Source of the DNA: Spirochaetaceae bacterium
Lineage (GTDB): Bacteria; Spirochaetota; Spirochaetia; CADAEX01
DNA length: 64,000 nt
Reading direction: 5' to 3'
NCBI GenBank assembly: GCA_009780675.1
Contig: WQZP01000005.1
Span: forward strand, 33,082-97,081
Made by a program: the position numbers and the translations under genes. Position 1 is the stretch's first letter. Each line of letters starts with the position of its first letter. A model generated the notes under the pieces. The model was not told the origin of the DNA. It saw only the letters and a program-made list of their open reading frames with translations, and ran no database searches. Of the stretch, positions 47,556-61,100 are shown piece after piece.

Positions 47556-50500
47556 ATGAAAAGGTGGATAGTGTTTTCTTTACTGCTATTTTTAGTAGGA
47601 CTTTGTATTAGTTGCGGGAGAAGAGAAGCTCTGCCGCCGATTGTTTCAGTAGAAGGATTTATTGAAAATCCCTCATCCGGCAATACCGGAACTATGGTAA
47701 CGCTTTTTGCGAATGACGCAGCTATTGAAGCAGCCTTTACATTGGATTACCGTCCCCAAAGAGCAGAACCAGAAAGTGTAGCGGAATTTTTAGAGCTTTC
47801 AGGTCCAGCTGTGCAGGATTCCGGACGGGGAACTGTTCATGGTGGAGGACTGCGAAGGCTATCGGACTATAGAACAGTTTATTTTAACCCGGAACAAGAA
47901 AGAAGCAGAATCGCAGCGATTCGGGCAACCCAGGAAGCTGCTCGCGAGGGGCATTTGCCCAGCGATAACGCAGGCCCGCTTACAGTAATCGACTGGGGAC
48001 CCAGAGGAGAATTTTCTTCTGCTGTGCAGCGACCTTCTATCCATGTCATCTTTTCCCAGCCCATGGTTCCGCTTGCAAGCCTTGGCGAACAGAGCAGCAC
48101 TTCTCCGATAATAAGCATCAGCCCACCTATCAGGGGATCTTTCCGTTGGTATGGAACAAGCTTTTTGAGTTTTGAGGGAGATGAACCTTGTCAGGCACAG
48201 CAAATCTATACTATTACTGTGGCGCAAAATGCCACATCTATACACGGTACAAGAATTTCAGGAGAGCGTGTTTTTACATTTCGTACCGAGCCTCTGAGCA
48301 TAAGAAGCGTATCACCTGGCGAGGAATTCAGAAGAACAACCGGTTTCCGTTTTGACAACCGAAACGTGCCTCCATCTGCTGCGCGACAAATAACCATTGA
48401 ATTCAATTATCCTGTTGAGGCTAGTCACATAAGACAACATCTGGAAATTACTGCCGGGAATGCTCAATTGAGGTTTAATCTTCAGCAAGAGACTGAACGC
48501 AGGGTTATTGCCAATGTGCTCGACCAGATTGGTTTTGAGACTCAGGTAAATGTTATCCTCAAGAGAGGAGCCATGTCCAGAGGCGGGACTCGCGGAACTG
48601 AATCAGACAGGACTTTTAGCTTTAGTACCCCATCAGCTTTCAGGGTGGAGGGTCACCACCGAATATCTGCTCACGGCAGATACCGCAATTTACTCAGGCT
48701 GGATTTTAGTCATGCGCTGAATGAAAGCACTGTATTGCAGGCAATCAGTACAGTGCCCCCAATGCCTATAGGGCCTGAGAATATTGAGGTATGGGGAAAC
48801 AGGGTGAATGTTTTCAATTTACCTATTGAGTTTGGCTCACGTTTCAGAATTTTGGTTGCTGCTAACGTAGAAGATGTGTTTGGCAGGAGACTTGGCGAAC
48901 CCTTTGCTGCTGATATTGTAATACCTGATGAACCGCCGCCTGTTGGCAGCGCTGAATTTCTCCATCCGCATTCCAGGCATGCGATGCTGGAAGCTCAGTT
49001 TCCGCCACGCTTTCTTTTTGAATACAGAAACATTGCCCAAAATTCATTTTACAGACTGGCCTCGGTCCTTAACCCCTTTATAAGTCACCCCTCTTTTACC
49101 GAATTTGAGCTGACTCCTGGCCGGGTTAATGCCAGATATTTTGAGGAGATTGACCTTTCGCCATTTCTCAATGAGCAAAGGAGGGGCTTTGTTGCTTTCA
49201 GGGCGAACTTGCAACTCCTCACCAATGAGAGACAGAGAGATGGAACATTTCTTCCAGGGGTTAGAAGCAGGAATAATGAACTTAACATACAGGTTACAGA
49301 TTTGGGGCTAACAGTACGTTATGGCTTTAACAGAGCAACAGTGCTGGTTACAAGTCTTTCCACTGGTCTTCCGGTAGAGGGAGCCAGAGTCAGGCTTTTG
49401 CCTCCTTCTGTAAGGGGCGCTGAGGACCTTGCCTACATTGCTGCTATCGGAGAAGCTCTGACCAATAGAGATGGTCTTGCGGTGATCTCTTTGGGCGCAT
49501 CGGTGTTGCGCAATAATTCCGGGCGCACCAGTTGGGGAGGGTTTGAGCCCCCTTTTGTTATGGCGGAAAAAGATGGGGATAAAGCAATTTTTTTCCCAAA
49601 TTCCCATAATAATTGGCGTTTTGGAATTAACTCAATGCAACCTCAGCGCGCCGAAGAAATAACAGCGCTTGCCTTTATATTTTCCGACCGGGGGCTCTAC
49701 AGACCTGGCGAAACTTTAAGTTTTAGGGGTGTTGACCGCTCCAGAGTGCTTGGTATGTACACGGTTCATCGGGGAGATTTTACAATTACTCTTGAAGGGG
49801 ACGGGCATAGACCTCAGCAAGTCGCCAGTTTTCAGGGTACAACTACTGAATCCGGCAGTTTTTACGGAACCATTACTGTTCCGGATGATCTCGTGCCAGG
49901 TTCTTACCGGCTGGTGTACCGGCGGAACATTAGCTTGAACAGAGAAAACGATATTGTCGCCAGTGTGCCTGTAACAGTTGCCTTTTTTGAACGCCTTAGA
50001 TTTCAGGCATCTCTTTCCGCGCCAGCAGCAGCGGTCATACGCGGCGATGATATCAATCTGAATTTAAGAGCCTCTTACCTTGCAGGTGGCAGCTTGTCTG
50101 GCGCTTCCTGGGAGGGTGCATGGTTCAGGGAGCTGTCTGTGTTTGCGCCCAGACGCGCAGAAACCAGAGGTTTTGTATTTGGACCGCGTCGAGGCTGGGA
50201 TGCAAGACGGCATATTGCCTCTGAAAGCGGAAGCTTAAGCGGCCAGGGAGCTGCAAGCCTTACCCAGAAAACTGGTGGCGGCACAGTAATCGGCGCGCCA
50301 TACCAATATCATGTTGAGGCAAGAGTTACTGATATTGGCAATCAAATGGTGACAGCTTTTCGCTCTGTGCAGGTACACCCTGCAAGTTTCTACATTGGCC
50401 TTAATCGCGGCGCTGGAGGCGGGTTCGCGAGAGCAGGACAGGAAATTTCTTATGATTTTATCACTGTCAATACCCAGGGCGAGAGAACTACTGGTAATGC

Positions 50501-53500
50501 CCTTTTTCTCCAAAGCGGAGAAAACGCGGGAATGCTTACTGTAGAACTTATTCGTGAAGAATGGCGGCGCGTTCAGCAGAGGGGAGTAGGCGGCTACATT
50601 CATGACGAGTTCTCCTCTCAGTTGATTGTTGAAAGCACTCAAAGAATTCCTATTGGAAATGGCAGCGGTTCCATAAGAATAAGACCCAGAGTTGCTGGTT
50701 TTCATATCCTGCGGGTTACTGCGCAGGACAGGGAAGGGAGAACAGCTCTGACAGAACTCAACTTCCATGCTACAGGCGCTGGAGCTGGCTTTTGGAATAT
50801 GAGTAACCCCAACGAGCTAAGGCTAACGCCGGATCAGGAGATGTATGAACCAGGCGATACAGCACAGATTTTGTTGCAGAGTCCGCTTCCGGAAGGCCGT
50901 TATCTTATAACTGTGGAGCGTGAGGGCATTTTCACCCAGGAAGTACGCCATTTTACCGAACCTGTTACAGTGTTCGAAGTTCCAATTGCGCGTAATTTTG
51001 TGCCTGTGGTATATGTATCGGTTTCGTCCTATTCTGTGCGTCCCGGCCCTCCTACTCATGAGTATGGCAGCCCTGACCTTGACAAACCCAAGGGGTACTT
51101 TGGCGTAACGCGGCTAAGGGTGAATCCACGTTCCAGAGCTTTTTCTATCAATATAGAAAGCGACAGACAAATCTACCGGCCAGGAGAAGAAGTAACCATG
51201 ACTCTGACTGCTACCAGAGGCGGCAGACCATTGCCTGGCGCGGAACTTAGCCTGATGGCAGTAGACCGGGGTGTTTTGGATCTTATCAATTATCGCGTAC
51301 CAGACCCAATAAGCCATTTTTACGCTGAACACCGCTTTCCTCTTGCAGTGATGGGTGGTGATTCCCGCGCATGGCTTATGGACCCAGTAACTTACAGTGT
51401 AAAAAATCTTGCAGGCGGAGACGCTGAAGATGAAAGCAAACTTGAGGAACGCAGGGACTTTAACCCCACTGCTGTTTTTGAACCCATGCTTATTACTGAT
51501 GCTAACGGCAGGGTGACTGTCAGATTCCGGCTTCCCGACAATCTTACGACATATCGCGTAACAGCCTTTGGGGTGCGCGGAGACCTTTTTGCGCTTCGGG
51601 AAAGTGAGATTGCTGCCCAGAACCAGATAAATGTGCGGGAGCTTTTGCCACGCCGCGTTCGGGAGCGGGATACTGCTGAAGTTGGAGTGCTTATCACAAA
51701 TCTTGATACATCGTCCCATACCTTGACGGTCAGGCTAAATATAGGTCCACCAGGACCAAATGATTATGCAAGCGGTTTAGCGAAGACACCTGGAGAGGCT
51801 TTTGTTGATGGAATACACGAGCGCCGTGTAACAGTTAGAAGCGGTGAGAATGCTGTTGTTAATTTCGATGTTGGCGCAGTAAGAGCAGGGACTGTAAGTC
51901 TCAATTTTACCATCAATTCAAATATCCTTAATGAAAGGCTTGTCAGGGAACTGCAGATTGAGCGTCCGTTTGTTTTTGAAACAATTACCACCATTGGCAC
52001 AGTGACAACAAACAGAAGCACTGAGGGGCTTGTTATCCCTTCGTTTGCAGATGGTGGGATGGGCAATCTTTCGCTGGTTCTTGATGCAACGCGGCTAGGG
52101 TTATTGGATTCAGCTGTCACTTACCTTTTCCATTATCCTTTTGCGTGTCTGGGGCAGCGCGCCGCAGCTATTCTGCCGCTGGTGATTTTCGGTGAACATA
52201 TTGAAGCTTTAAACCTTAGAAGCGATGTTGCTAATCCTCGCCGTGTGGTGGAAAATGAGCTCAGATCCTGGGGGCAAATACAGCTCGCCAGCGGAGGCTT
52301 TCCTTTCTGGCCCTCTGGTACTCGCGGCAACTTTTTCGTCAGCCTGCGCATAGCGCATATTATTGCCATTGCTCAATCAAAAGAGATTGCCATCCCCTCG
52401 TCTCTGAATGTCCCTGCTCTTACAGCTTTTCTTGAGCGGGAACTCCAGGAGTCGCAGAGGCGGCGAGGAAGTCAGGCATGGTGTGAGTGCCAACTGTATT
52501 TGCAAAGTTATATGCTCTATGTCTTATCCCTGCTTGGCGAAAGGATAGATCCGGCACGGCTCAATGAAATCTTGAGCCGAAGTAATCTTGACCCGTCAGT
52601 GCTTGCCTTGACCGGCATGACTTACCGTGTTCTGGGCAGGAACGCTGAAGCTGCGCGTACTGCCCAACGCCTGCGCGATCTTGTTCGCATGACTGCCAGG
52701 GGTGTGGAGATTACCGACCCTCTGGAAAGACACCGCTGGAATATTTTTGGCGGCAGGGTTGAACAGCTTGCGCTTACTTTGCAATTCTTTGTGGATCAAT
52801 ATCCAGGAGATGAGATCAATACCCGGCTCCTCTTTACCATGCTGGAAAACAAGCGTTCCGGAGGCTTCTGGCAAAGCACGCTGGTAACTGCGCGGGTTCT
52901 TTCCGCAGTTGATGCATTGATTCGCGCGGAAGATCTTGCCAATATTAACGTGAATGCGGCTGCCATGTTGGCAGGAACAGAGCTTTTGAGCGGCACATTC
53001 CAGGGGCTGGGAGCAAAACCAGTTACCGGAACCTTCAATTTTAACGAAGCAATGTTAGCGGGACTGGACCGGGATCGCATACATGCCTTAGAGTTTACTC
53101 GTCAGGGAACAGGTAATATTTACTACACAGCTTCCCTCCGTTATGCCATACCCGCAGAACTTCAGTCATTCCGTGACGAGGGGTTGGGTGTTTTCTTGAG
53201 TATTTACGATATAGAGACTGGCGAGGCAATACAGGGAACTGCCCTGATAAGTGGAAAAGTTTACCGGGGCAGGGTGAGGCTGTCATCCAGTCATGACCGC
53301 ACTTTTGTTGCTTTGCGTGTTCCTGTCCCTTCGGGCGCAGAGATACTTGATGCAACTTTTGTTACTACTGCTACTTTTGACGATAGAGGCGGAGCAGCCG
53401 GCACTGATGAAAGCGAACGCCGCGGGTCATGGTTAAGTCACCGGGCTATTTTTGACAATGAGATTCAATTTTTTTGGGATCAGTTTAACAAAGGAGAAGA

Positions 53501-53627
53501 AACAGTGAATTTCCTTTTCCGTGCTGTAAGAAGGGGTGTCTATCCAACACCACCAGCTCAGGCTGAGTGTATGTATGAGCCGGAGATTTTCGGGCGCAGC
53601 CGGGGGGTGATTTACACAATTGAATAA
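47556..53627 (+). CDS. Bacterial alpha-2-macroglobulin family lipoprotein
   Basis: LCISC lipobox, Ig-like domains, SDRGLYRPGE, LPDNLTTYR, thioester-site YPFACLGQ, MYEPEIFGRS; paired with pbpC. Confidence 0.93.
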   Translation: MKRWIVFSLLLFLVGLCISCGRREALPPIVSVEGFIENPSSGNTGTMVTLFANDAAIEAAFTLDYRPQRAEPESVAEFLELSGPAVQDSGRGTVHGGGLRRLSDYRTVYFNPEQERSRIAAIRATQEAAREGHLPSDNAGPLTVIDWGPRGEFSSAVQRPSIHVIFSQPMVPLASLGEQSSTSPIISISPPIRGSFRWYGTSFLSFEGDEPCQAQQIYTITVAQNATSIHGTRISGERVFTFRTEPLSIRSVSPGEEFRRTTGFRFDNRNVPPSAARQITIEFNYPVEASHIRQHLEITAGNAQLRFNLQQETERRVIANVLDQIGFETQVNVILKRGAMSRGGTRGTESDRTFSFSTPSAFRVEGHHRISAHGRYRNLLRLDFSHALNESTVLQAISTVPPMPIGPENIEVWGNRVNVFNLPIEFGSRFRILVAANVEDVFGRRLGEPFAADIVIPDEPPPVGSAEFLHPHSRHAMLEAQFPPRFLFEYRNIAQNSFYRLASVLNPFISHPSFTEFELTPGRVNARYFEEIDLSPFLNEQRRGFVAFRANLQLLTNERQRDGTFLPGVRSRNNELNIQVTDLGLTVRYGFNRATVLVTSLSTGLPVEGARVRLLPPSVRGAEDLAYIAAIGEALTNRDGLAVISLGASVLRNNSGRTSWGGFEPPFVMAEKDGDKAIFFPNSHNNWRFGINSMQPQRAEEITALAFIFSDRGLYRPGETLSFRGVDRSRVLGMYTVHRGDFTITLEGDGHRPQQVASFQGTTTESGSFYGTITVPDDLVPGSYRLVYRRNISLNRENDIVASVPVTVAFFERLRFQASLSAPAAAVIRGDDINLNLRASYLAGGSLSGASWEGAWFRELSVFAPRRAETRGFVFGPRRGWDARRHIASESGSLSGQGAASLTQKTGGGTVIGAPYQYHVEARVTDIGNQMVTAFRSVQVHPASFYIGLNRGAGGGFARAGQEISYDFITVNTQGERTTGNALFLQSGENAGMLTVELIREEWRRVQQRGVGGYIHDEFSSQLIVESTQRIPIGNGSGSIRIRPRVAGFHILRVTAQDREGRTALTELNFHATGAGAGFWNMSNPNELRLTPDQEMYEPGDTAQILLQSPLPEGRYLITVEREGIFTQEVRHFTEPVTVFEVPIARNFVPVVYVSVSSYSVRPGPPTHEYGSPDLDKPKGYFGVTRLRVNPRSRAFSINIESDRQIYRPGEEVTMTLTATRGGRPLPGAELSLMAVDRGVLDLINYRVPDPISHFYAEHRFPLAVMGGDSRAWLMDPVTYSVKNLAGGDAEDESKLEERRDFNPTAVFEPMLITDANGRVTVRFRLPDNLTTYRVTAFGVRGDLFALRESEIAAQNQINVRELLPRRVRERDTAEVGVLITNLDTSSHTLTVRLNIGPPGPNDYASGLAKTPGEAFVDGIHERRVTVRSGENAVVNFDVGAVRAGTVSLNFTINSNILNERLVRELQIERPFVFETITTIGTVTTNRSTEGLVIPSFADGGMGNLSLVLDATRLGLLDSAVTYLFHYPFACLGQRAAAILPLVIFGEHIEALNLRSDVANPRRVVENELRSWGQIQLASGGFPFWPSGTRGNFFVSLRIAHIIAIAQSKEIAIPSSLNVPALTAFLERELQESQRRRGSQAWCECQLYLQSYMLYVLSLLGERIDPARLNEILSRSNLDPSVLALTGMTYRVLGRNAEAARTAQRLRDLVRMTARGVEITDPLERHRWNIFGGRVEQLALTLQFFVDQYPGDEINTRLLFTMLENKRSGGFWQSTLVTARVLSAVDALIRAEDLANINVNAAAMLAGTELLSGTFQGLGAKPVTGTFNFNEAMLAGLDRDRIHALEFTRQGTGNIYYTASLRYAIPAELQSFRDEGLGVFLSIYDIETGEAIQGTALISGKVYRGRVRLSSSHDRTFVALRVPVPSGAEILDATFVTTATFDDRGGAAGTDESERRGSWLSHRAIFDNEIQFFWDQFNKGEETVNFLFRAVRRGVYPTPPAQAECMYEPEIFGRSRGVIYTIE

Positions 53628-55929
53628 TATTTCAATTTTAAAGATAAATAAAAAAGTGTTAAAAATTACTCTCCGAATTGCTGTTGTGGTGATGGGGGTG
53701 TTTGCGCTGGCCTGGCTTATCCTGCGGTTTTCCCCCTATCCGGAGTTGGAGGCTTTTATGGCCAGACCCAACAGTGTCCGTTACCTGGACCGCAACGGCA
53801 TTTTGCTGCAGGTAACTCCTCTGGCTGATGGACTGCGCCGGGAAATACCGGAACACATTCCCGGCCAAGTGAAGGAAGTTTTTATCTTTGCCGAAGACCG
53901 CCGTTTTTACCGCCATTTTGGTGTTGATGCTCTTGCTTTTTCTCGCGCTCTTTTCCAGAATCTCACACAGAGAATGGTGGTAAGCGGGGCATCTACCATA
54001 ACCATGCAGCTTGCCAGGCTTATTTCCATAGAGGCAACTCCTGCAAATACCAGCCGCAGAGGAGGGGAATTGCGGAGAAAGATAGGCGAGGCAGTAAACG
54101 CCATGCGCCTTGAAACAAGACTTTCAAAAGATGAAATACTTGAGTTATACCTTAATTCAGTCCCTTTTGGTTTTAACACAGAAGGGGTTGCTTCTGCTAG
54201 CCGGACTTTTTTTGCCTCTGAACTTTCCATGCTTTCTCCTGCCCAGATTTTTTGTCTGGCAGTTATTCCCAGGCGCCCAAGTCTCTACAATCCGCTGGAA
54301 AATCCCGGAGCGTGCGTATCTGCTGCTGCGGAACTGCATGCCAATTTTAGCAGAAGCAAGAGACGCTCTTCAGCCTGGCCGCTTTTGGCTGACATAACCA
54401 TATATGACTGGAAGTTTGCTGCTTCTTCTGCCCGCAGGTTTGCGTACCCATTTGAGCTGCCCCATCTTATCCGGCATATCAACGCTGGCCAGAGTGAACC
54501 GCGCAGCGAAATATACCTTTCCATTGATCTTGGCCTGCAGCATTTTCTTGAAGGCGCAGTTGCCGGAAGTGTGATCCGCCATCAAACAGCCAGGCTCACT
54601 AACGGCGCTGCTATTGTTATTGATAATGAAACAGGAGAAATTCTTGCCTGGGTAGGTAGTTATGATTTCAATAACGAAGAAGCTGCGGGGCAGGTTGACG
54701 GAGTGTTGGCGCTAAACCAGCCTGGCAGCAGTATGAAGCCACTTCTCTATGCTATGGCTCTTGAAAAAGGCTTTAAACCTAATGATGTTATTGCAGACAT
54801 TCAAATGAGTTTTGGCGTAAGTGAAGTTTACCTTCCTCGTAATTTCAACAACCGTTTTAATGGTCCAATGCTTTTTCGCACAAGCCTGGCTTCAAGCCTG
54901 AATATTCCGGCAGTGTATCTGCTCTACCGGCTTGGGGTAAGGAATTTTACCTATCAGCTTTTTTCCCTGGGTTTTGATTCTCTTGAACGTTCCGCAGATG
55001 AGGTGGGTTTGGGTCTTGCGCTTGGTAACGCTCCGGTAAGTCTCAAGGAGCTTGTCAGGTCTTTTAGTGTTTTTCCAAGGGACGGTGTTTACATACCACT
55101 GACGTGGGAATTGAATGGCAGAACGCAGCAGAATAGCATAATAGAGCAGCGGATTTTTTCTGCAGACACCTCCAGGCTCATCTGCTCAATTTTGTCTGAT
55201 CCAGATGCCAGAGTGCTGGCTTTTGGTCCAGCTACGAGTTTCAGAACACCGTTTCCGTCAATATTTAAAACCGGCACTGCTAATCAGTTTCAAAGTATTG
55301 TTGCGCTTGGGGCTACTACAAAATACAGCGTCGGAGTGTGGATGGGTAACTTTACCGGCGAAACAGTTATAGGCAGGACAGGCAGTTCTGTCCCGGCTGC
55401 CACTGTTCGGGATACTCTGGTTTTTTTGCATGGCAGGGGGAGTGCGCAGGAGTTCCCGACTCCTGAAAACTGGCAACCGCAAAGGATATGCGCTCTTTCG
55501 GGGATGATGCCCACGCATGTCTGCCCTGCGACCATCAATGAATACATTCAAACAGGAGAGGAAAATAGGCCTTGCACCTGGCATCAGATGGTAGATGGCC
55601 GCTTTGAAGTAGTATTCCCTGCTGAATATCAGGCATGGTTTAATACTGCAGTGAGACAGGGTTCTATTGACTTCAGTTCCCGGCCACTGGAAATTACGAA
55701 TCCTCGTGATGGTTTTGTCTATTTGAGCAGCTCAGGCATAGGCAGGAACGAAATCCCGGTAGAGGTTATAGGCGGCACTGAAGATGAATTACATGTAACT
55801 TTTAATGGCCGGAGTTTCAGCATCACTCGACCCTTTGTTTTTTTTCTTGAGCGCAGCCCTGGCTTTCATACTCTGCACGTTCAAAGTGGATATGAGGAAA
55901 GAGTGGTTACATTTACAGTTCAACCCTGA
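53620..55929 (+). CDS. pbpC: Penicillin-binding protein 1C
   Basis: EDRRFYRHFGVD, GASTITMQLAR, GSSMKP (SxxK), SLN, KTGT; downstream of alpha-2-macroglobulin. Confidence 0.92.
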   Translation: MNNISILKINKKVLKITLRIAVVVMGVFALAWLILRFSPYPELEAFMARPNSVRYLDRNGILLQVTPLADGLRREIPEHIPGQVKEVFIFAEDRRFYRHFGVDALAFSRALFQNLTQRMVVSGASTITMQLARLISIEATPANTSRRGGELRRKIGEAVNAMRLETRLSKDEILELYLNSVPFGFNTEGVASASRTFFASELSMLSPAQIFCLAVIPRRPSLYNPLENPGACVSAAAELHANFSRSKRRSSAWPLLADITIYDWKFAASSARRFAYPFELPHLIRHINAGQSEPRSEIYLSIDLGLQHFLEGAVAGSVIRHQTARLTNGAAIVIDNETGEILAWVGSYDFNNEEAAGQVDGVLALNQPGSSMKPLLYAMALEKGFKPNDVIADIQMSFGVSEVYLPRNFNNRFNGPMLFRTSLASSLNIPAVYLLYRLGVRNFTYQLFSLGFDSLERSADEVGLGLALGNAPVSLKELVRSFSVFPRDGVYIPLTWELNGRTQQNSIIEQRIFSADTSRLICSILSDPDARVLAFGPATSFRTPFPSIFKTGTANQFQSIVALGATTKYSVGVWMGNFTGETVIGRTGSSVPAATVRDTLVFLHGRGSAQEFPTPENWQPQRICALSGMMPTHVCPATINEYIQTGEENRPCTWHQMVDGRFEVVFPAEYQAWFNTAVRQGSIDFSSRPLEITNPRDGFVYLSSSGIGRNEIPVEVIGGTEDELHVTFNGRSFSITRPFVFFLERSPGFHTLHVQSGYEERVVTFTVQP

Positions 55930-56032
55930 ACATTCTTAGCCATAAGCCGTACTCTATTGAAGATGATTATTTGAGGAGAGGCTTGAGTATCTTGACGTTT
56001 TTGCATTAATTTAATATCTATATAATTAACAA

Positions 56033-56962
56033 ATGAATCGTGTAGGAAGCTTATTAATTAGTACTTGTGTAAAAGCGCTTGCTCAATCAATGCCTACAAA
56101 TGTTATGCTTGATTTAGTAAGAAAACTAATTCCAAACTATGATCTGCATGGCCGACTTGGTTTTCCAAGAAGTATGGCTATACCAAATAAAGATGCAGCT
56201 CGTCAAATTATAAAAGATACAGTAAAAAATGACTGTTTTATTGATTTTGTTTTACTCATGGTAGATGCCGGAAATAATGGTGTTATGGGACGAAGATACT
56301 CTATCCCATATATGAACCAAATTATTTTAGGTGTCTTTGATTTAGGTTATATTTATGATGGAGTAAACAATATATTTGTTGAAAATCCTAAAAATAGACT
56401 AAGTAGAAATTGGGGAACTTTAAAAACAGGAAAAGACTATGGTTTTGCTTTTATGCGGCTTGATATAGCAGGCAATTCTAAAATGGTAAGGGAAAATTCT
56501 GAAAAAGATGTTCATAAGGCTTATAAATATCTTAGGGAAGTTACAACCAGAGCTGTTCTAAAAAGAAATGGTCGTTTATGGAGTTGGGATGGTGATGGAG
56601 GACTTGCTTCATTCTTTTTTGGTAATAAACAGCAGAGCGCAGTAATAGCTGGAAAAGAGATTTTGCATGAACTATTTTTTTATAATTACCTGAATTGCCC
56701 TTTAAAAACACATTTAAAAGTAAGAATTGCTGTTCATTCCGGCACATTTGAATATTCCCCTTATGAAGAAGATTTAAAGGCTTGTGATGCTGTAAAAAAA
56801 GTAATGGAAATAGAGTCTTATTTTACGAAGCCAGGAACAATGACAATCAGCCAGCCTGTTAAATTTATGCTCGATAATATTGCAAGAACCGGTATAAAGC
56901 TATTGCAGGGGAAAGGGGCTACTGAATATCATAACTATGAACTTATACTGGAAAGCAAGTGA
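56033..56962 (+). CDS. Class III nucleotide cyclase-like protein (metal-binding half) with N-terminal helical domain
   Basis: RLDIAGNS, WDGDGG, RIAVHSG motifs. Confidence 0.75.
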   Translation: MNRVGSLLISTCVKALAQSMPTNVMLDLVRKLIPNYDLHGRLGFPRSMAIPNKDAARQIIKDTVKNDCFIDFVLLMVDAGNNGVMGRRYSIPYMNQIILGVFDLGYIYDGVNNIFVENPKNRLSRNWGTLKTGKDYGFAFMRLDIAGNSKMVRENSEKDVHKAYKYLREVTTRAVLKRNGRLWSWDGDGGLASFFFGNKQQSAVIAGKEILHELFFYNYLNCPLKTHLKVRIAVHSGTFEYSPYEEDLKACDAVKKVMEIESYFTKPGTMTISQPVKFMLDNIARTGIKLLQGKGATEYHNYELILESK

Positions 56963-57984
56963 AAATATTAATTATCAGTAATCAAAAGAAAGTAGAAGAA
57001 AGTTTTTATCCTCTTAAAAAGTCTGGTTATGAGATTGAAAAATCCTGCAAAGAAAATTATAAAAAATATGTGAAAAATTTATCAGGACCTGTTATTGTAT
57101 ATTTTGATATTTATCAAAATAGTGAAAAAGAATATTGGGAACATATTAAATCACTTTTAAAACAACAAATTATTTTTCTTGGAATTATTGACTCAAAATC
57201 TGTTGCTCCAGATCCAGCAGCTTTTTTTCATGCAGGAATTTCTGATTACATAGGAAACAAACAACTTCTGGAAGGAATTACTAAAAAACGGATAAAAGAT
57301 ATTTTTGCTTTAAAAGAAAAAGTAAATTTTTTGCCCCACAATATGACAGAGACTGAAAATAAAAATGAAAAATCTCAAAAATTATTGCCTGTTTTAGCTA
57401 AAAAAGAATTTTCTGCAAAATTAGTTCCAAATGGAGAATGGAAAAAAATTAAAAATGGTGAAGAATATGTTTTTTATTTTCTTTATGCAGAAATAGATTT
57501 GGCTGCTGATTGGAAAAGAAAAACAGGCCAATCTATTTTACAAAAAGTTAAAGAAGTTTTTCATAATTATATAGAACAGCATATAAAACCAATAAATGGT
57601 AAAATATGGATGTGGAATGAATTTGGCGGTCTTATTTTATTTCCATATACAAAAAATGACCATGATGTGGCAATAACAGCATCTAAACTTATAGTGAATG
57701 CGCCTATAGCCAGTTGTGAAGATTTTCCTTTTAAAATGGAGATATCCTACAGACTTGCTCTTCATGTAGGAGAAACAGTATATAAAGAACGTGGCAATAC
57801 CGGAACCATTGTTTCCGACACAATAAATTTTACTTTTCATTTGGGACAGAAATTCGCGAAACCTGATAATTTTTATATAACCGAAGAAGTATATAACAGG
57901 ATACATCCTGGTCTAAAAGAACTATTTTTGTCAGAAGGGGTGTTTGAAAACAGGAACATCCTAAGATTAAGAAAATTTGTTTAA
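56959..57984 (+). CDS. Receiver-like domain + degenerate class III nucleotide cyclase domain
   Basis: MKILII..VYFD..AGISDYIGNK REC pattern; RLALHVG, SDTINFTFHL, FYITEEVY. Confidence 0.7.
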   Translation: MKILIISNQKKVEESFYPLKKSGYEIEKSCKENYKKYVKNLSGPVIVYFDIYQNSEKEYWEHIKSLLKQQIIFLGIIDSKSVAPDPAAFFHAGISDYIGNKQLLEGITKKRIKDIFALKEKVNFLPHNMTETENKNEKSQKLLPVLAKKEFSAKLVPNGEWKKIKNGEEYVFYFLYAEIDLAADWKRKTGQSILQKVKEVFHNYIEQHIKPINGKIWMWNEFGGLILFPYTKNDHDVAITASKLIVNAPIASCEDFPFKMEISYRLALHVGETVYKERGNTGTIVSDTINFTFHLGQKFAKPDNFYITEEVYNRIHPGLKELFLSEGVFENRNILRLRKFV

Positions 57985-58059
57985 CCACTAATTCAAAGTA
58001 ATAAATATTAAAAAAATATTATTTTCTACTTCTCATTATTTAAATAATATGATAGCTTT

Positions 58060-58097
58060 TGTGTATTAAAATACAGTTTTGTGCATAAAAATACACG
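58060..58097. promoter_or_regulatory. Tandem ARG boxes (ArgR operator) upstream of carB
   Basis: TGTGTATTAAAATACAGT and TGTGCATAAAAATACACG, 2 bp apart, fit WNTGNATWWWWATNCANW. Confidence 0.75.
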
Positions 58098-58122
58098 GGA
58101 TTATCTTAAACGAGGGGAAAAG

Positions 58123-61100
58123 ATGAAGCAAGAAGATATAAAAAAAATATTAATAATAGGTTCAGGGCCAATAGTAATTGGACAAGCATGCGAATTCGAT
58201 TATTCAGGGACTCAGGCATGTAAAGCTCTAAGGGAACATGGGTATCAGATTGTTCTTGTTAATTCAAATCCTGCAACGATTATGACAGATCCTGTAATGG
58301 CAGATGCAACATATATTGAACCACTAAACCTTGAAAGGTTAACACAAATCATAGAAAAAGAGAGACCAGATGCACTATTGCCAAACCTTGGAGGCCAAAC
58401 AGGGCTTAATCTTGCTTCTCAGCTTAGTAATGCAAAAGTACTTGAAAAATATAATGTAAAAGTAATTGGAGTAAATCTTGAGGCAATTAAAAAAGGGGAA
58501 GACAGAGAAATATTTAAGCAACTAATGCAGGAACTGGGCATAGAGACAGCTAATTCTGATATTGCATATTCAGTTGCAGAAGCTGAAAATATAGCAGAAA
58601 AGCTTTCATATCCAGTAGTTGTAAGACCTGCATATACAATGGGCGGCGCTGGCGGAGGTCTTGTTTATAATGTCGAAGAACTGCGCGCAATTGTTAGCAG
58701 GGGACTTGAACTTTCTTTAACTAACCAATGTCTCATTGAAGAATCAATCCTTGGTTGGGAAGAGCTTGAAGTTGAGGTTGTACGTGACAGCAAAAATATG
58801 ATATCTGTATGTTTTATTGAAAATATTGATGCAGTTGGTGTGCACACCGGAGATTCTTGCTGTATAGTTCCAATGTTAACAATTGATAAAAAAACAGAAG
58901 AAAGGCTTAAACAACTTGCATTTCAAGTTGTTGAAACTATTGGAGTTATAGGCGGAACAAATGTCCAGTTTGCCCATGACCCAAAGACAGGACGTATTGT
59001 AATTATTGAAATCAACCCGAGAACTTCCCGCTCTTCTGCATTAGCATCAAAAGCTACAGGATTTCCAATAGCTTTGATTTCTGCAAAACTTGCAACCGGA
59101 ATGACAATGGATGAGATCCCATATTGGCGGGATGGAACTCTTGAGAAATATACACCTTCCGGAGATTATGTTGTTATAAAATTTCCGCGCTGGGCTTTTG
59201 AAAAATTTCGAGGGGTTCAGGATTCGCTTGGAACACAAATGAAAGCAGTTGGCGAAGTTATGGCAATTGGCAAGACTTTTAAAGAAACTTTTCAAAAAGC
59301 AATTCGGGGTCTTGAAAATGGCAGACATGGTCTTGGCTTTGCAAAAGATTTTAACAGAAAATCTCTAAGTGAATTAATGGAAATGCTTATGCGCCCTACA
59401 AGCGAGCGCTTCTTTATTTTATATGAAGCTATCAGAAAAGGGGCAAATATTAAAAAGCTTTTTGAACTTACATATATTAAAGAATATTATCTTAATTTAA
59501 TAAAAGAGCTTGTAGAGCTTGAAGAAGAGATGTTAAAAAAACCAGGCCAACTACCATCTAATGAACTTTTGACAAAAGCAAAAAAAGATGGATTTTCCGA
59601 TAAATATATTGCAAAGATACTTGGCATAAGAGAAAAAGATGTTAGAAAACGCCGCACAGAACTTGGTTTGGTTGAAGGGTGGCACACTGTCCCTGTTTCC
59701 GGCAAGACAGGTGCATATTATTATTACTCTACATATAATGCGCCAGATATATCCAAGGCAACTTCAAATAACAAAAAAATAATGATCCTTGGCGGAGGCC
59801 CCAACAGAATAGGGCAGGGAATAGAATTTGATTATTGCTGTGTGCATGCTGCTTTTGCGCTCCGCGAACTGGGCTATGAAACAATAATGGTCAACTGTAA
59901 TCCTTCTACAGTTTCAACAGATTACGATACAAGCGATAAGCTTTATTTTGAGCCAGTAACGCTCGAAGATGTTTTGCAGATTTATGAAAAAGAAAAACCT
60001 TTAGGCGTTATTGTACAGTTTGGAGGTCAAACTCCGCTTAATATTGCACGAGAGCTTGCAGATGAAGGGGTAAAAATTCTTGGAACAAGCATTAATAGTA
60101 TTGATGTTGCCGAAGACCGCGATCTTTTTAGAAAAATGATGGAGCAACTTGAAATACCAATGCCCGAAGCAGGGATGGCATCTGATATTGATGAAGCAAT
60201 TAAGGTTACAAATAATATAGGATATCCAATAATGATACGCCCTTCTTTTGTTCTTGGTGGTCGTGGGATGGAAGTTATATATGATGAAAATATGTTAAAG
60301 GAATATGTTGCAAAAGCAGTAGGGGTTACTCCGGATCGCCCGCTTTTGCTCGACCGTTTTCTTCGCAATGCTTTTGAATGTGAAGCAGATGCATTGGCAG
60401 ATGGAAATGAAGTATATATCCCATCTGTTATGGAACATATTGAACTTGCAGGTGTCCACTCAGGAGATTCCGCATGTGTGATCCCTCCTGTTTCAATAAC
60501 GCAGGAAAATCTTAAAAAAATCAAGGAATATACTACAAAAATCGCAAAAGCTCTTAATGTATGCGGACTTATGAATATGCAATATGCAATTGAAAATGAT
60601 AAAGTCTATGTTCTTGAAGCAAATCCAAGAGCAAGCCGCACAGTTCCTATTGTCTCTAAAGTGTGCGATATCCAAATGGCAAAATATGCTACACGACTTA
60701 TGCTTGGAGAAAAACTTTCAGATTTAAAATTATGTGAAAAGAAATTTTCCCATTATGGAGCAAAAGAATCAGTTTTCCCATTTGATAAATTTCCGGAAGT
60801 TGATCCTATACTTGGTCCAGAAATGCGCTCTACAGGAGAGGTTCTTGGACTTTCAGACAGCTTTGCTCTTGCTTTCTATAAATCTCAGGAAGCTGCAGGG
60901 ACCTTTTTGCCCTCCAAGTTGGATCCATCCGAAGGCGCTGGAAAAGTGCTTATAAGTCTTTCTGATAAAGACTCTTTCCATGCTGAATCAATAATAAATA
61001 TTGGAAAATTGTTTATTGAACTTGGATTTACAATATTGGCAACAGAAGGGACAGCCGGATTTTTCAGAAACGGAGGAGTTCAATGCGAAGTAATTGCAAA

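Follow-up and report, generated by a model that had tools for sequence, protein, structure and literature searches.

Do two overlapping genes of a spirochaete encode the two halves of a single nucleotide cyclase? The question is raised by a stretch of 64,000 nucleotides (nt) from Spirochaetaceae bacterium (assembly GCA_009780675.1, contig WQZP01000005.1, positions 33,082 to 97,081; the whole stretch is called the window hereafter), in which two open reading frames follow each other on the forward strand. ORF1 (window positions 56033-56962, + strand) starts with ATG and encodes 309 amino acids (aa), and ORF2 (56959-57984, + strand) starts with GTG and encodes 341 aa. The original prediction, made from this one pair, had proposed that each protein carries the complementary half of a class III cyclase active site and that the two form an obligate heterodimer, possibly regulated by phosphorylation. 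Our analysis leads to a related reading, which we hold to be reasonably probable: ORF1 and ORF2 would each contribute one subunit to a hetero-oligomeric class III nucleotidyl cyclase, which arose in Spirochaetota from a duplicated single-gene enzyme, each copy losing the opposite half-site. As judged from the residues that each protein has kept, very probably neither works without the other, a dependence also seen in animal cyclases.

Both proteins end in a domain that we assign as a class III cyclase-homology domain (CHD), as had been predicted. The CHD of ORF1 spans residues 123-309 (56399-56959, + strand) and would provide the metal-binding half-site, while that of ORF2 spans residues 157-341 (57427-57981, + strand) and is devoid of the metal-binding Asp residues. 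All motifs quoted in the original prediction were found in the translations, namely RLDIAG, WDGDGG and DAVKKVME in ORF1 and YAEIDL, WNEFGG, GTIVSDTINFTFH and VYFD in ORF2. The proposed search with hidden Markov models for cyclase and receiver domains gave a divided answer. A Pfam and NCBIfam scan of both window proteins returned no cyclase or receiver match at E≤1, so that neither Guanylate_cyc nor Response_reg was recovered, whereas profiles of the two families did match solved structures. These profiles combined the window proteins with 42 of the 89 homologues found for ORF1 and 42 of the 54 found for ORF2. When the family members were scanned one by one, Guanylate_cyc (Pfam PF00211) weakly matched 2/43 ORF1-family proteins (best E 0.0053) and 0/43 of the ORF2 family, and the GGDEF model touched 2/43 ORF2-type proteins. 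Against solved structures, the ORF1 profile matched 3mr7_A (E 3.1e-6), the Pycsar cUMP synthase 7r65_A (0.0033) and Ma1120 (0.006). The ORF2 profile matched 3mr7_A with its C-terminal half (E 1.1e-4) and the response regulator 8svz_A with its N-terminal 102 positions (E 0.002). Alignment of the two CHDs to each other with hhalign (ORF1 123-293 with ORF2 157-328; probability 99.4, E 4.8e-21) identifies them as paralogues.

The AlphaFold2 (AF2) models of ORF1 (mean predicted local distance difference test score, pLDDT, 92.9; predicted TM score, pTM, 0.84) and ORF2 (pLDDT 89.0, pTM 0.60) match the same fold. The top Foldseek hits were class III cyclases for both proteins (5oyh_M, E 3.8e-10, TMt 0.77 for ORF1; 6sir_A, E 5.4e-8 for ORF2). 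With VIA-align, ORF1 aligned best with 7r65_A (Z 21.3, root mean square deviation (rmsd) 2.5, 179 aligned residues), with five ordinary adenylyl or guanylyl cyclases within ~1.3 Z of it, and the ORF2 CHD with 2w01_A (Z 18.2, rmsd 2.6, 173 aligned). Overall, the models scored Z 15-21 against class III cyclases and ~Z 11-13 against GGDEF domains. Taken together, profiles and models place the class III fold of both CHDs far beyond chance and point to a divergent cyclase clade missed by standard annotation.

To map motifs onto functions, both family profiles were aligned with HMMER to the solved cyclase 3mr7_A. In class III cyclases the metal Asp are found at the end of β1 and in the β2-β3 hairpin, and the transition-state Asn and Arg on helix α4. 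In ORF1, D144 (56462-56464) and D188 (56594-56596) align with this Asp pair, the Asn and Arg positions being occupied by K255 and E259. In ORF2, the Asn and Arg positions are taken by N290 (57826-57828) and H294 (57838-57840), and T283 takes that of the second base-selecting residue; at the two Asp positions there are E178 and F222. We then took a census of 230 unique pairs, drawn from public genome and metagenome loci together with both pairs of the genome from which the window comes. The first metal Asp is D in 229/230 ORF1 proteins, while at the ORF2 position (E178) we counted E in 153, S in 34, A in 17 and D in 3. The second metal Asp of ORF1, as well as the preceding G187, is invariant (230/230), its ORF2 counterpart being mostly F, Y or W. 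Conversely, the Asn position of ORF2 is N in 222/230 (the other 8 rows are gapped) and its Arg position is H in 221/230, while ORF1 has K (152), R (43) or N (9) at the former and E (92), D (32), Q (29) or R (13) at the latter. The base-selecting Lys position is S or N in ORF1 (S184 in the window) and M or I in ORF2 (M218); the second base-selecting position of ORF2 is T in 136, N in 20 and E in 17. The residues T281-G282 and S286-D287 of ORF2 are almost invariant. The complementary half-sites noticed in one pair, with the Asp pair in ORF1 and Asn plus His in place of Arg in ORF2, thus hold across the 230 unique pairs and are a rule of the family.

The two genes also stay together. Their overlap reads GTGA (56959-56962, + strand), as had been reported, with the ORF1 stop codon TGA at 56960-56962 and the ORF2 start codon GTG at 56959-56961, an arrangement that we read as translational coupling. 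Two scans of genome collections confirmed 261 and 138 family loci. We compared four partly overlapping sets of 80 loci: the best 80 of 261 confirmed loci from a search of one-genome-per-species contigs seeded with ORF1, 80 of 105 confirmed loci from a search seeded with ORF2, a set seeded with the type of the second pair of the same genome, and a set from metagenomes. In the ORF1-seeded set ORF2 lies directly downstream in 78/80 loci, and the other two ORF1 genes abut a contig end. In the ORF2-seeded set ORF1 lies upstream in 73/80, six loci are cut by a contig end and one appeared to be an orphan. This last candidate was rejected, as a C-terminal fragment of ORF1 lies just upstream of it behind a run of masked bases. 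An automatic rule placed ORF2 downstream in 76/80 and 68/80 loci of the second-pair-type and metagenome sets; it had overlooked ORF2 in 3 and 4 more loci, which raises the counts to 79/80 and 72/80, and in the remaining 1 and 8 loci the contig breaks off within 345 nt. In all 11 loci without ORF2 from the three sets found through ORF1, the ORF1 gene lies no more than 411 nt from a contig end. The spacing from stop to start in 114 unique pairs is −4 nt (39 pairs), 0 (37), −1 (11), −8 (6) or +1 to +7 (12), so that 105/114 fall between −8 and +7 nt; the other nine are longer, up to 98 nt.

The same holds at the level of genomes. Among 401 sampled Spirochaetota genomes, an ORF1-type protein was matched in 96 (E≤1e-30) and an ORF2-type protein in 92 (E≤1e-25), the latter genomes all being among the former. 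Presence of the pair follows families within this sample (12/14 genomes in family f19, 11/11 in f23, 0/76 in f20, 0/37 in f25 and 1/51 in f2). Only one paired-type ORF1 was seen without a partner: genome G078 (loci L352, 3861-4778, minus strand, and L353, 3618-4973, minus strand) has an intact pair, in which masked bases conceal part of ORF1, and, ~64 kb away, a near-identical lone copy of ORF1 with no ORF2. Apart from this duplicate, ORF2 is present wherever the contig extends far enough beyond ORF1, which bears out the co-occurrence across spirochaetes that had been put forward as a check. ORF1 and ORF2 are inherited as a translationally coupled unit in Spirochaetota. No fused ORF1-ORF2 form was seen among proteins of 542-2000 aa, which is weak evidence, and no third conserved gene accompanies the pair, the commonest neighbour cluster being present in 21/114 loci.

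These data bear on another arrangement, in which ORF1 alone would be a homodimeric enzyme with a relaxed need for Asn and Arg, and ORF2 a regulatory paralogue of dominant-negative or activating effect. ORF1 does have both metal Asp, together with a K or R at the Asn position in 195/230 proteins, and one genome contains the recent lone duplicate of ORF1 described above. However, with that one exception, paired-type ORF1 was always accompanied by ORF2 when the contig extended far enough to show it, and the near-invariant Asn, His, T281-G282 and S286-D287 of ORF2 would be hard to explain in a mere binder. We therefore regard a self-sufficient ORF1 as improbable.

Evidence on the origin of the pair comes from genomes with an ORF1-type match and no ORF2-type match. 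These contain a distant group, with E values of ~1e-44 to 1e-56 against the ORF1 profile, from which 14 places were retrieved: 12 stand-alone genes that include the ORF1-like N-terminal domain, one of them coding for a protein of 560 aa with an extra N-terminal region, and two divergent pairs. All 12 stand-alone proteins combine the first metal Asp (S/L-D-I/V), the W-x-W-x-GDG hairpin and the ORF2-type motif TG-x-I-x-S-x-x-I-N; their Arg position is H in nine, K in two and R in one. In the two divergent pairs the half-sites are complementary again.

A maximum-likelihood tree was calculated for 94 CHDs by a quick IQ-TREE search with SH-aLRT (Shimodaira-Hasegawa-like approximate likelihood ratio test) support only. 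It included 36 pairs thinned to <62% identity, the 12 single proteins, the two divergent pairs and, as outgroup, 6/8 of the ordinary class III CHDs of the genome under study. The whole family forms one group (SH-aLRT 100), in which the single proteins make up a basal grade, itself unresolved. The paired genes group together (92) and divide into two clades, one of ORF1 (99) and one of ORF2 (99), and both pairs of the genome under study fall into matching subclades of the two. The branch at the root is long (1.92) and should be read with this, and with the quick search, in mind. Because complete single proteins branch below a single ORF1 clade and a single ORF2 clade, the simplest reading of the tree is one duplication of a complete enzyme, after which the two copies would have undergone reciprocal loss and diverged in step with each other. 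The original prediction had counted frequent single homologues against an obligate heterodimer. Such homologues do make up the sister group, yet each of them carries both halves of the site; the heterodimer reading is therefore supported rather than refuted by them.

The mechanism that we propose starts from this complete, single-gene and presumably homodimeric ancestor, which would have been duplicated, each copy then losing the opposite half of the active site. ORF1 would supply both metal-binding Asp (D144 and D188), and ORF2 the Asn that contacts the ribose and transition state (N290), H294 at the Arg position and a base pocket formed by M218 and T283. A head-to-tail contact between ORF1 and ORF2 would then be the sole route to one complete catalytic site. 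The second site, formed by E178 and E221 of ORF2 with K255 and E259 of ORF1, would be degenerate and may be regulatory. The 4-nt overlap would provide for coupled, near-equimolar synthesis of the two subunits, and the output would probably be controlled through the receiver-fold domain of ORF2 and the conserved N-terminal domain of ORF1.

To see whether the two CHDs bind each other, a single complex was predicted from ORF1 118-309 and ORF2 150-341, each with its alignment and with the N-terminal domain of ORF1 cut off. Three runs scored 0.85, 0.85 and 0.86, compared with 0.00 for the best of three controls; the score mark used is reached by 58/80 solved complexes and by 2/110 mismatched pairs. 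The runs share ≥98% of their contacts, with partner pLDDT values of ≥90. This supports binding between the predicted CHDs of ORF1 and ORF2. The pass could reflect memory of the prediction model, as dimers of the class III fold have been solved; however, the pose differs from the solved one. All of the 52-54 predicted contacts lie in ORF1 201-220, 281-287 and 304-309 and in ORF2 239-261, 316-324 and 338-341, which correspond to helix α3, the α5 region and the last strand, β8, of both CHDs in a pseudo-symmetric arrangement. The catalytic head-to-tail dimer, as described in passages of PMC4174876 and PMC6005667, is instead formed by the β2-β3 loops, which meet at the centre, by the β4-β5 arm ("flap") and by residues that neighbour the metal Asp or the base-selecting position. 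The model thus supports the heterodimer that had been predicted as far as binding goes, while the catalytic head-to-tail pose was not returned.

Several observations weigh against our reading. The predicted contacts include neither the β2-β3 loops nor the arm, so the pose is not the catalytic one, and it leaves D144 and D188 away from N290 and H294. Conservation in the predicted interface does not exceed that of the remaining CHD residues (mean entropy 2.02 vs 1.80 in ORF1 and 2.17 vs 1.95 in ORF2). In an inter-protein mean-field coupling analysis (223 unique pairs, effective number of sequences, Meff, 159, 382 columns), which was underpowered and used residue sets picked after the complex prediction had been seen, three of the top 20 couplings fell into the predicted interface (0.22 expected), a weak signal. 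The Pfam cyclase model was unmatched, and the replacement of Arg by His together with the missing base-selecting Lys/Asp pair means that activity is not assured. The β2-β3 hairpins and the ORF2 arm are almost invariant. Two of the top 20 couplings, again weak signals, fell into the guessed canonical sets (0.8 expected, p 0.19); these, 153-293 and 149-329, would fit a head-to-tail contact within the limits of the same underpowered analysis. Covariation between the N-terminal domain and the CHD of ORF1 (308 rows, Meff 199) was scattered over the top 40 pairs (α3 8, α4 6, β7-β8 5, others elsewhere). As the predicted interface is not the one that forms the active site, it is from residue conservation that we infer a composite site; we likewise infer the catalytic head-to-tail interface, the enzyme activity, the product and the mode of switching.

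The unexpected pose allows for several explanations. It may be an artefact of the removed N-terminal domain of ORF1, or simply a wrong pose. Alternatively, it is possibly a real second interface within a hetero-tetramer or polymer, the catalytic contact lying elsewhere. In an elaborate version of the latter, the α3/α5/β8 back-side interface would hold the two halves together permanently and the catalytic contact would form only between heterodimers, so that switching of the receiver would activate the enzyme through a tetramer or filament. Since no Lys/Asp or Glu/Cys pair is present, this enzyme would make a non-canonical cyclic nucleotide, such as one with a pyrimidine base. Such an assembly strikes us as distinctly unlikely. 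A contact on the back of the domains would also leave the front of ORF1 free, as expected if ORF1 were a homodimeric enzyme.

The same pose could be taken to mean that there is no catalysis at all, and that the CHDs are pseudo-enzymes that bind nucleotide or each other as a signalling scaffold or sensor. Degenerate, pseudo-enzyme cyclase-like proteins are known, and the fold matches include solved cyclase-like structures whose function is uncertain or other than that of a cyclase, namely 6yii_A, a "class III adenylyl cyclase-like ATP-binding protein" (Z 15.6), and 7sua_A, an Acinetobacter hypothetical protein (Z 14.5). His in place of Arg and the missing Lys/Asp base pair point in the same direction as the non-catalytic interface. 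However, strict conservation falls exactly on the catalytic residues, namely on both Asp of ORF1 and on Asn and His of ORF2, and 12/12 single-gene relatives keep all four positions together. The choice of H, K or R at the Arg position of these relatives furthermore looks as if function constrained a catalytic residue there to be basic or polar. We consider a non-catalytic complex unlikely on balance, and retain the split enzyme as the preferred reading.

As to what such an enzyme would make, the base-selecting positions of the pair fit neither the ATP nor the GTP rule. It had been noted that Ser and Met replace the base-selecting Lys and argued that the product may not be cAMP. The replacement stands (S184 and M218); the positions vary across the family, and the product may be other than cAMP. 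A PADLOC search matched ORF1 weakly and partially to PycC (E 1.7e-8, residues 138-232) and gave no match for ORF2. This match and the structural one to 7r65_A are leads towards pyrimidine cyclases and no more, the latter being tied with adenylyl and guanylyl cyclases. They could also hint at a Pycsar-like antiphage system, as the best VIA match of ORF1 is itself a Pycsar cUMP synthase (with the five ordinary cyclases close behind). Yet there is no effector gene and no conserved neighbour, ORF2 goes without a PADLOC match, the pair is inherited along spirochaete families (f19 and f23 above all) and co-diverges as a unit, and its surroundings are of a housekeeping kind, with carB downstream. For want of an effector, and given the family-wise inheritance and the housekeeping setting, a role in defence seems highly improbable.

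The N-terminal parts of both proteins are the candidate sites of control. ORF2 consists of a receiver-fold domain (residues 1-122, 56959-57324, + strand), a disordered linker (pLDDT <50 at residues 124-145 in the AF2 model) and the CHD. With VIA-align, residues 1-117 matched receiver domains of (βα)5 fold (2qxy_B, Z 14.9, rmsd 2.0, 111 aligned; 1zy2_B, Z 14.2, rmsd 2.3, 120 aligned), and D50 (57106-57108) aligns with the acceptor Asp of 8svz_A, a position at the end of β3, and is D in 216/230 pairs. Receivers of the CheY type have a set of further residues around the acceptor, with acidic residues ending β1, a Thr or Ser ending β4 and a Lys ending β5. In ORF2 the β4 position is Asp (D78) in 224/230 proteins; the β5 position is K in 89/230 and the β1 acidic position D in 87/191 ungapped rows, both being N in the window protein. 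Other residues are near-invariant, namely D85, D96 (229/230), Y97 and R111 (229/230). The N-terminus of ORF2 is thus best described as an atypical receiver. Of the earlier proposal, the receiver fold and the candidate acceptor Asp remain, while classical phosphorylation control appears doubtful because the Thr/Ser, the Lys and the β1 acidic residue are missing from the window protein. Phosphorylation of this domain is possible but not indicated, and switching driven by another ligand or by the partner would be equally compatible. No kinase gene is conserved beside the pair among the neighbour clusters of the 114 loci.

In ORF1, residues 1-122 (56033-56398, + strand) form a conserved, mostly helical domain without a known family, with the invariant residues Y36, D62, G83, G86 and E117. 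Searches of Pfam, NCBIfam and the ESM Atlas gave no match for it, and the hits of ORF1 in the profile search of the PDB and in the VIA lists were CHD matches. The domain recurs in the single-gene relatives, where the A1 profile matched from position 4-16 onward. The ATG at 56033 is backed by the N-terminal 19 residues, which align with the conserved consensus of the homologues.

Animal cAMP and cGMP signalling is characterised by heteromeric cyclases in which one site is catalytic and the other degenerate; their origin is generally sought in the duplication of a homodimeric enzyme of bacterial type. In the account of the mammalian membrane adenylyl cyclase given in part of PMC4174876, one CHD of the C1/C2 pair provides both metal Asp, while the Asn/Arg-type residues and those that select the base come from the other, so that a single catalytic site is formed beside a degenerate one. 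An equivalent split of residues between two paralogous class III CHDs is what we find in 230 pairs. However, C1 and C2 belong to one polypeptide with membrane domains, while the pair described here consists of two coupled bacterial genes without membrane domains and with other N-terminal domains; it has His for Arg and no Lys/Asp pair, and the complex prediction did not reproduce the head-to-tail interface. Soluble guanylyl cyclase, according to sections of PMC6005667, draws the Asp pair from its α subunit and Asn, Arg and the base pair from β, with N-terminal sensor domains on each subunit. It resembles our pair in having two genes and two subunits, and its structure 3uvj_A matches ORF1 with Z 18.4 and ORF2 with Z 16.1. 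It is, on the other hand, a eukaryotic enzyme with HNOX, PAS and coiled-coil domains that makes cGMP and has a Glu/Cys pair, whereas in the present pair the Asn/His subunit has a receiver-fold domain and the Asp subunit a helical domain of no known family.

The pair shares its fold (Z 15-21) with the homodimeric enzymes CyaC, Cya2, Rv1625c and Ma1120 and with the Pycsar pyrimidine cyclases (7r65, 8jsf, 8jsz). These enzymes have the full catalytic set in each chain and two equal sites, unlike the window proteins with half a set each; it is the single-gene relatives that resemble these complete bacterial enzymes. Complementing point mutants of Rv1625c have reportedly been engineered to mimic C1/C2. 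In its layout, ORF2 is reminiscent of REC-GGDEF proteins such as PleD and WspR, in which a receiver fold is likewise followed by a linker and a palm-fold cyclase domain, and 3bre_A and 6zxc_A align over both domains with rmsd 19-25. It differs from them in that its catalytic domain is of class III (Z ~18 vs 12) and its receiver is without the conserved Thr/Ser and Lys.

Full-text literature searches, with subscription journals and supplements outside their scope, returned no natural two-gene complementary class III cyclase in bacteria. Among eukaryotes, an excerpt of PMC8815786 describes fungal rhodopsin-cyclases that act as two-gene heterodimers, and a passage of PMC9552081 places the duplication behind the animal enzymes in an early eukaryote. 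The present analysis adds the complete single-gene relatives, the CHD tree, a second pair in the same genome, the atypical character of the receiver and a predicted interface that is not the canonical one. Within a single bacterial phylum, Spirochaetota would offer both stages of such a duplication, namely single-gene enzymes with a complete site and the two-gene forms that descend from them. Cultured species that are not pathogens carry the family (Sediminispirochaeta smaragdinae, Breznakiella homolactica RmG30 and Gracilinema caldarium), which opens this putative route of subfunctionalisation to direct biochemical tests. The family would also add a divergent cyclase clade with an Arg-to-His change that standard annotation has overlooked.

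Upstream of the pair, on its 5' side, lie genes for a bacterial α2-macroglobulin and a PBP1C-type penicillin-binding protein, and on its 3' side carB and a LysM-M23 peptidase gene. The two upstream genes occupy window positions 47556-55929 and overlap by 8 nt, the α2-macroglobulin comprising 2023 aa with bMG10, A2M_BRD, MG2, A2M and bMG3 domains. Their GC content is 0.45-0.53, compared with 0.25-0.42 in the flanks of this island, ~0.30 in the pair and 0.37 in the genome. Because its GC content exceeds that of both genome and flanks, the two-gene island, which ends ~100 nt before ORF1, was likely acquired horizontally. The abrupt shift in GC content at ~55950 belongs to this island; an assembly chimera at that point was ruled out, as it is bridged by contigs of two runs from two studies (both of which may be source samples). 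A scan of 55700-58300 found 12 promoter-like sites, compared with 12.2 in shuffled sequences, and one terminator-like site, compared with 1.2. A look for signs of expression found no RNA data set among the sequencing runs listed.

The second, diverged ORF1/ORF2 pair of this genome is located on another contig (C8:26604-28522; 485-2418 of locus L002, minus strand), codes for proteins of 306 and 338 aa and likewise overlaps by 4 nt. Its relatives come mostly from metagenome-assembled genomes of termite-gut Treponema, as well as from B. homolactica RmG30 and G. caldarium. In addition, the 2.4 Mb genome holds eight ordinary multidomain class III cyclases, with open frames of 624-925 aa, and ten matches to cyclic nucleotide-binding domains, two of which lie on the contig of the window just past its end. 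With these eight cyclases and ten binding domains, the genome appears rich in cyclic-nucleotide signalling.

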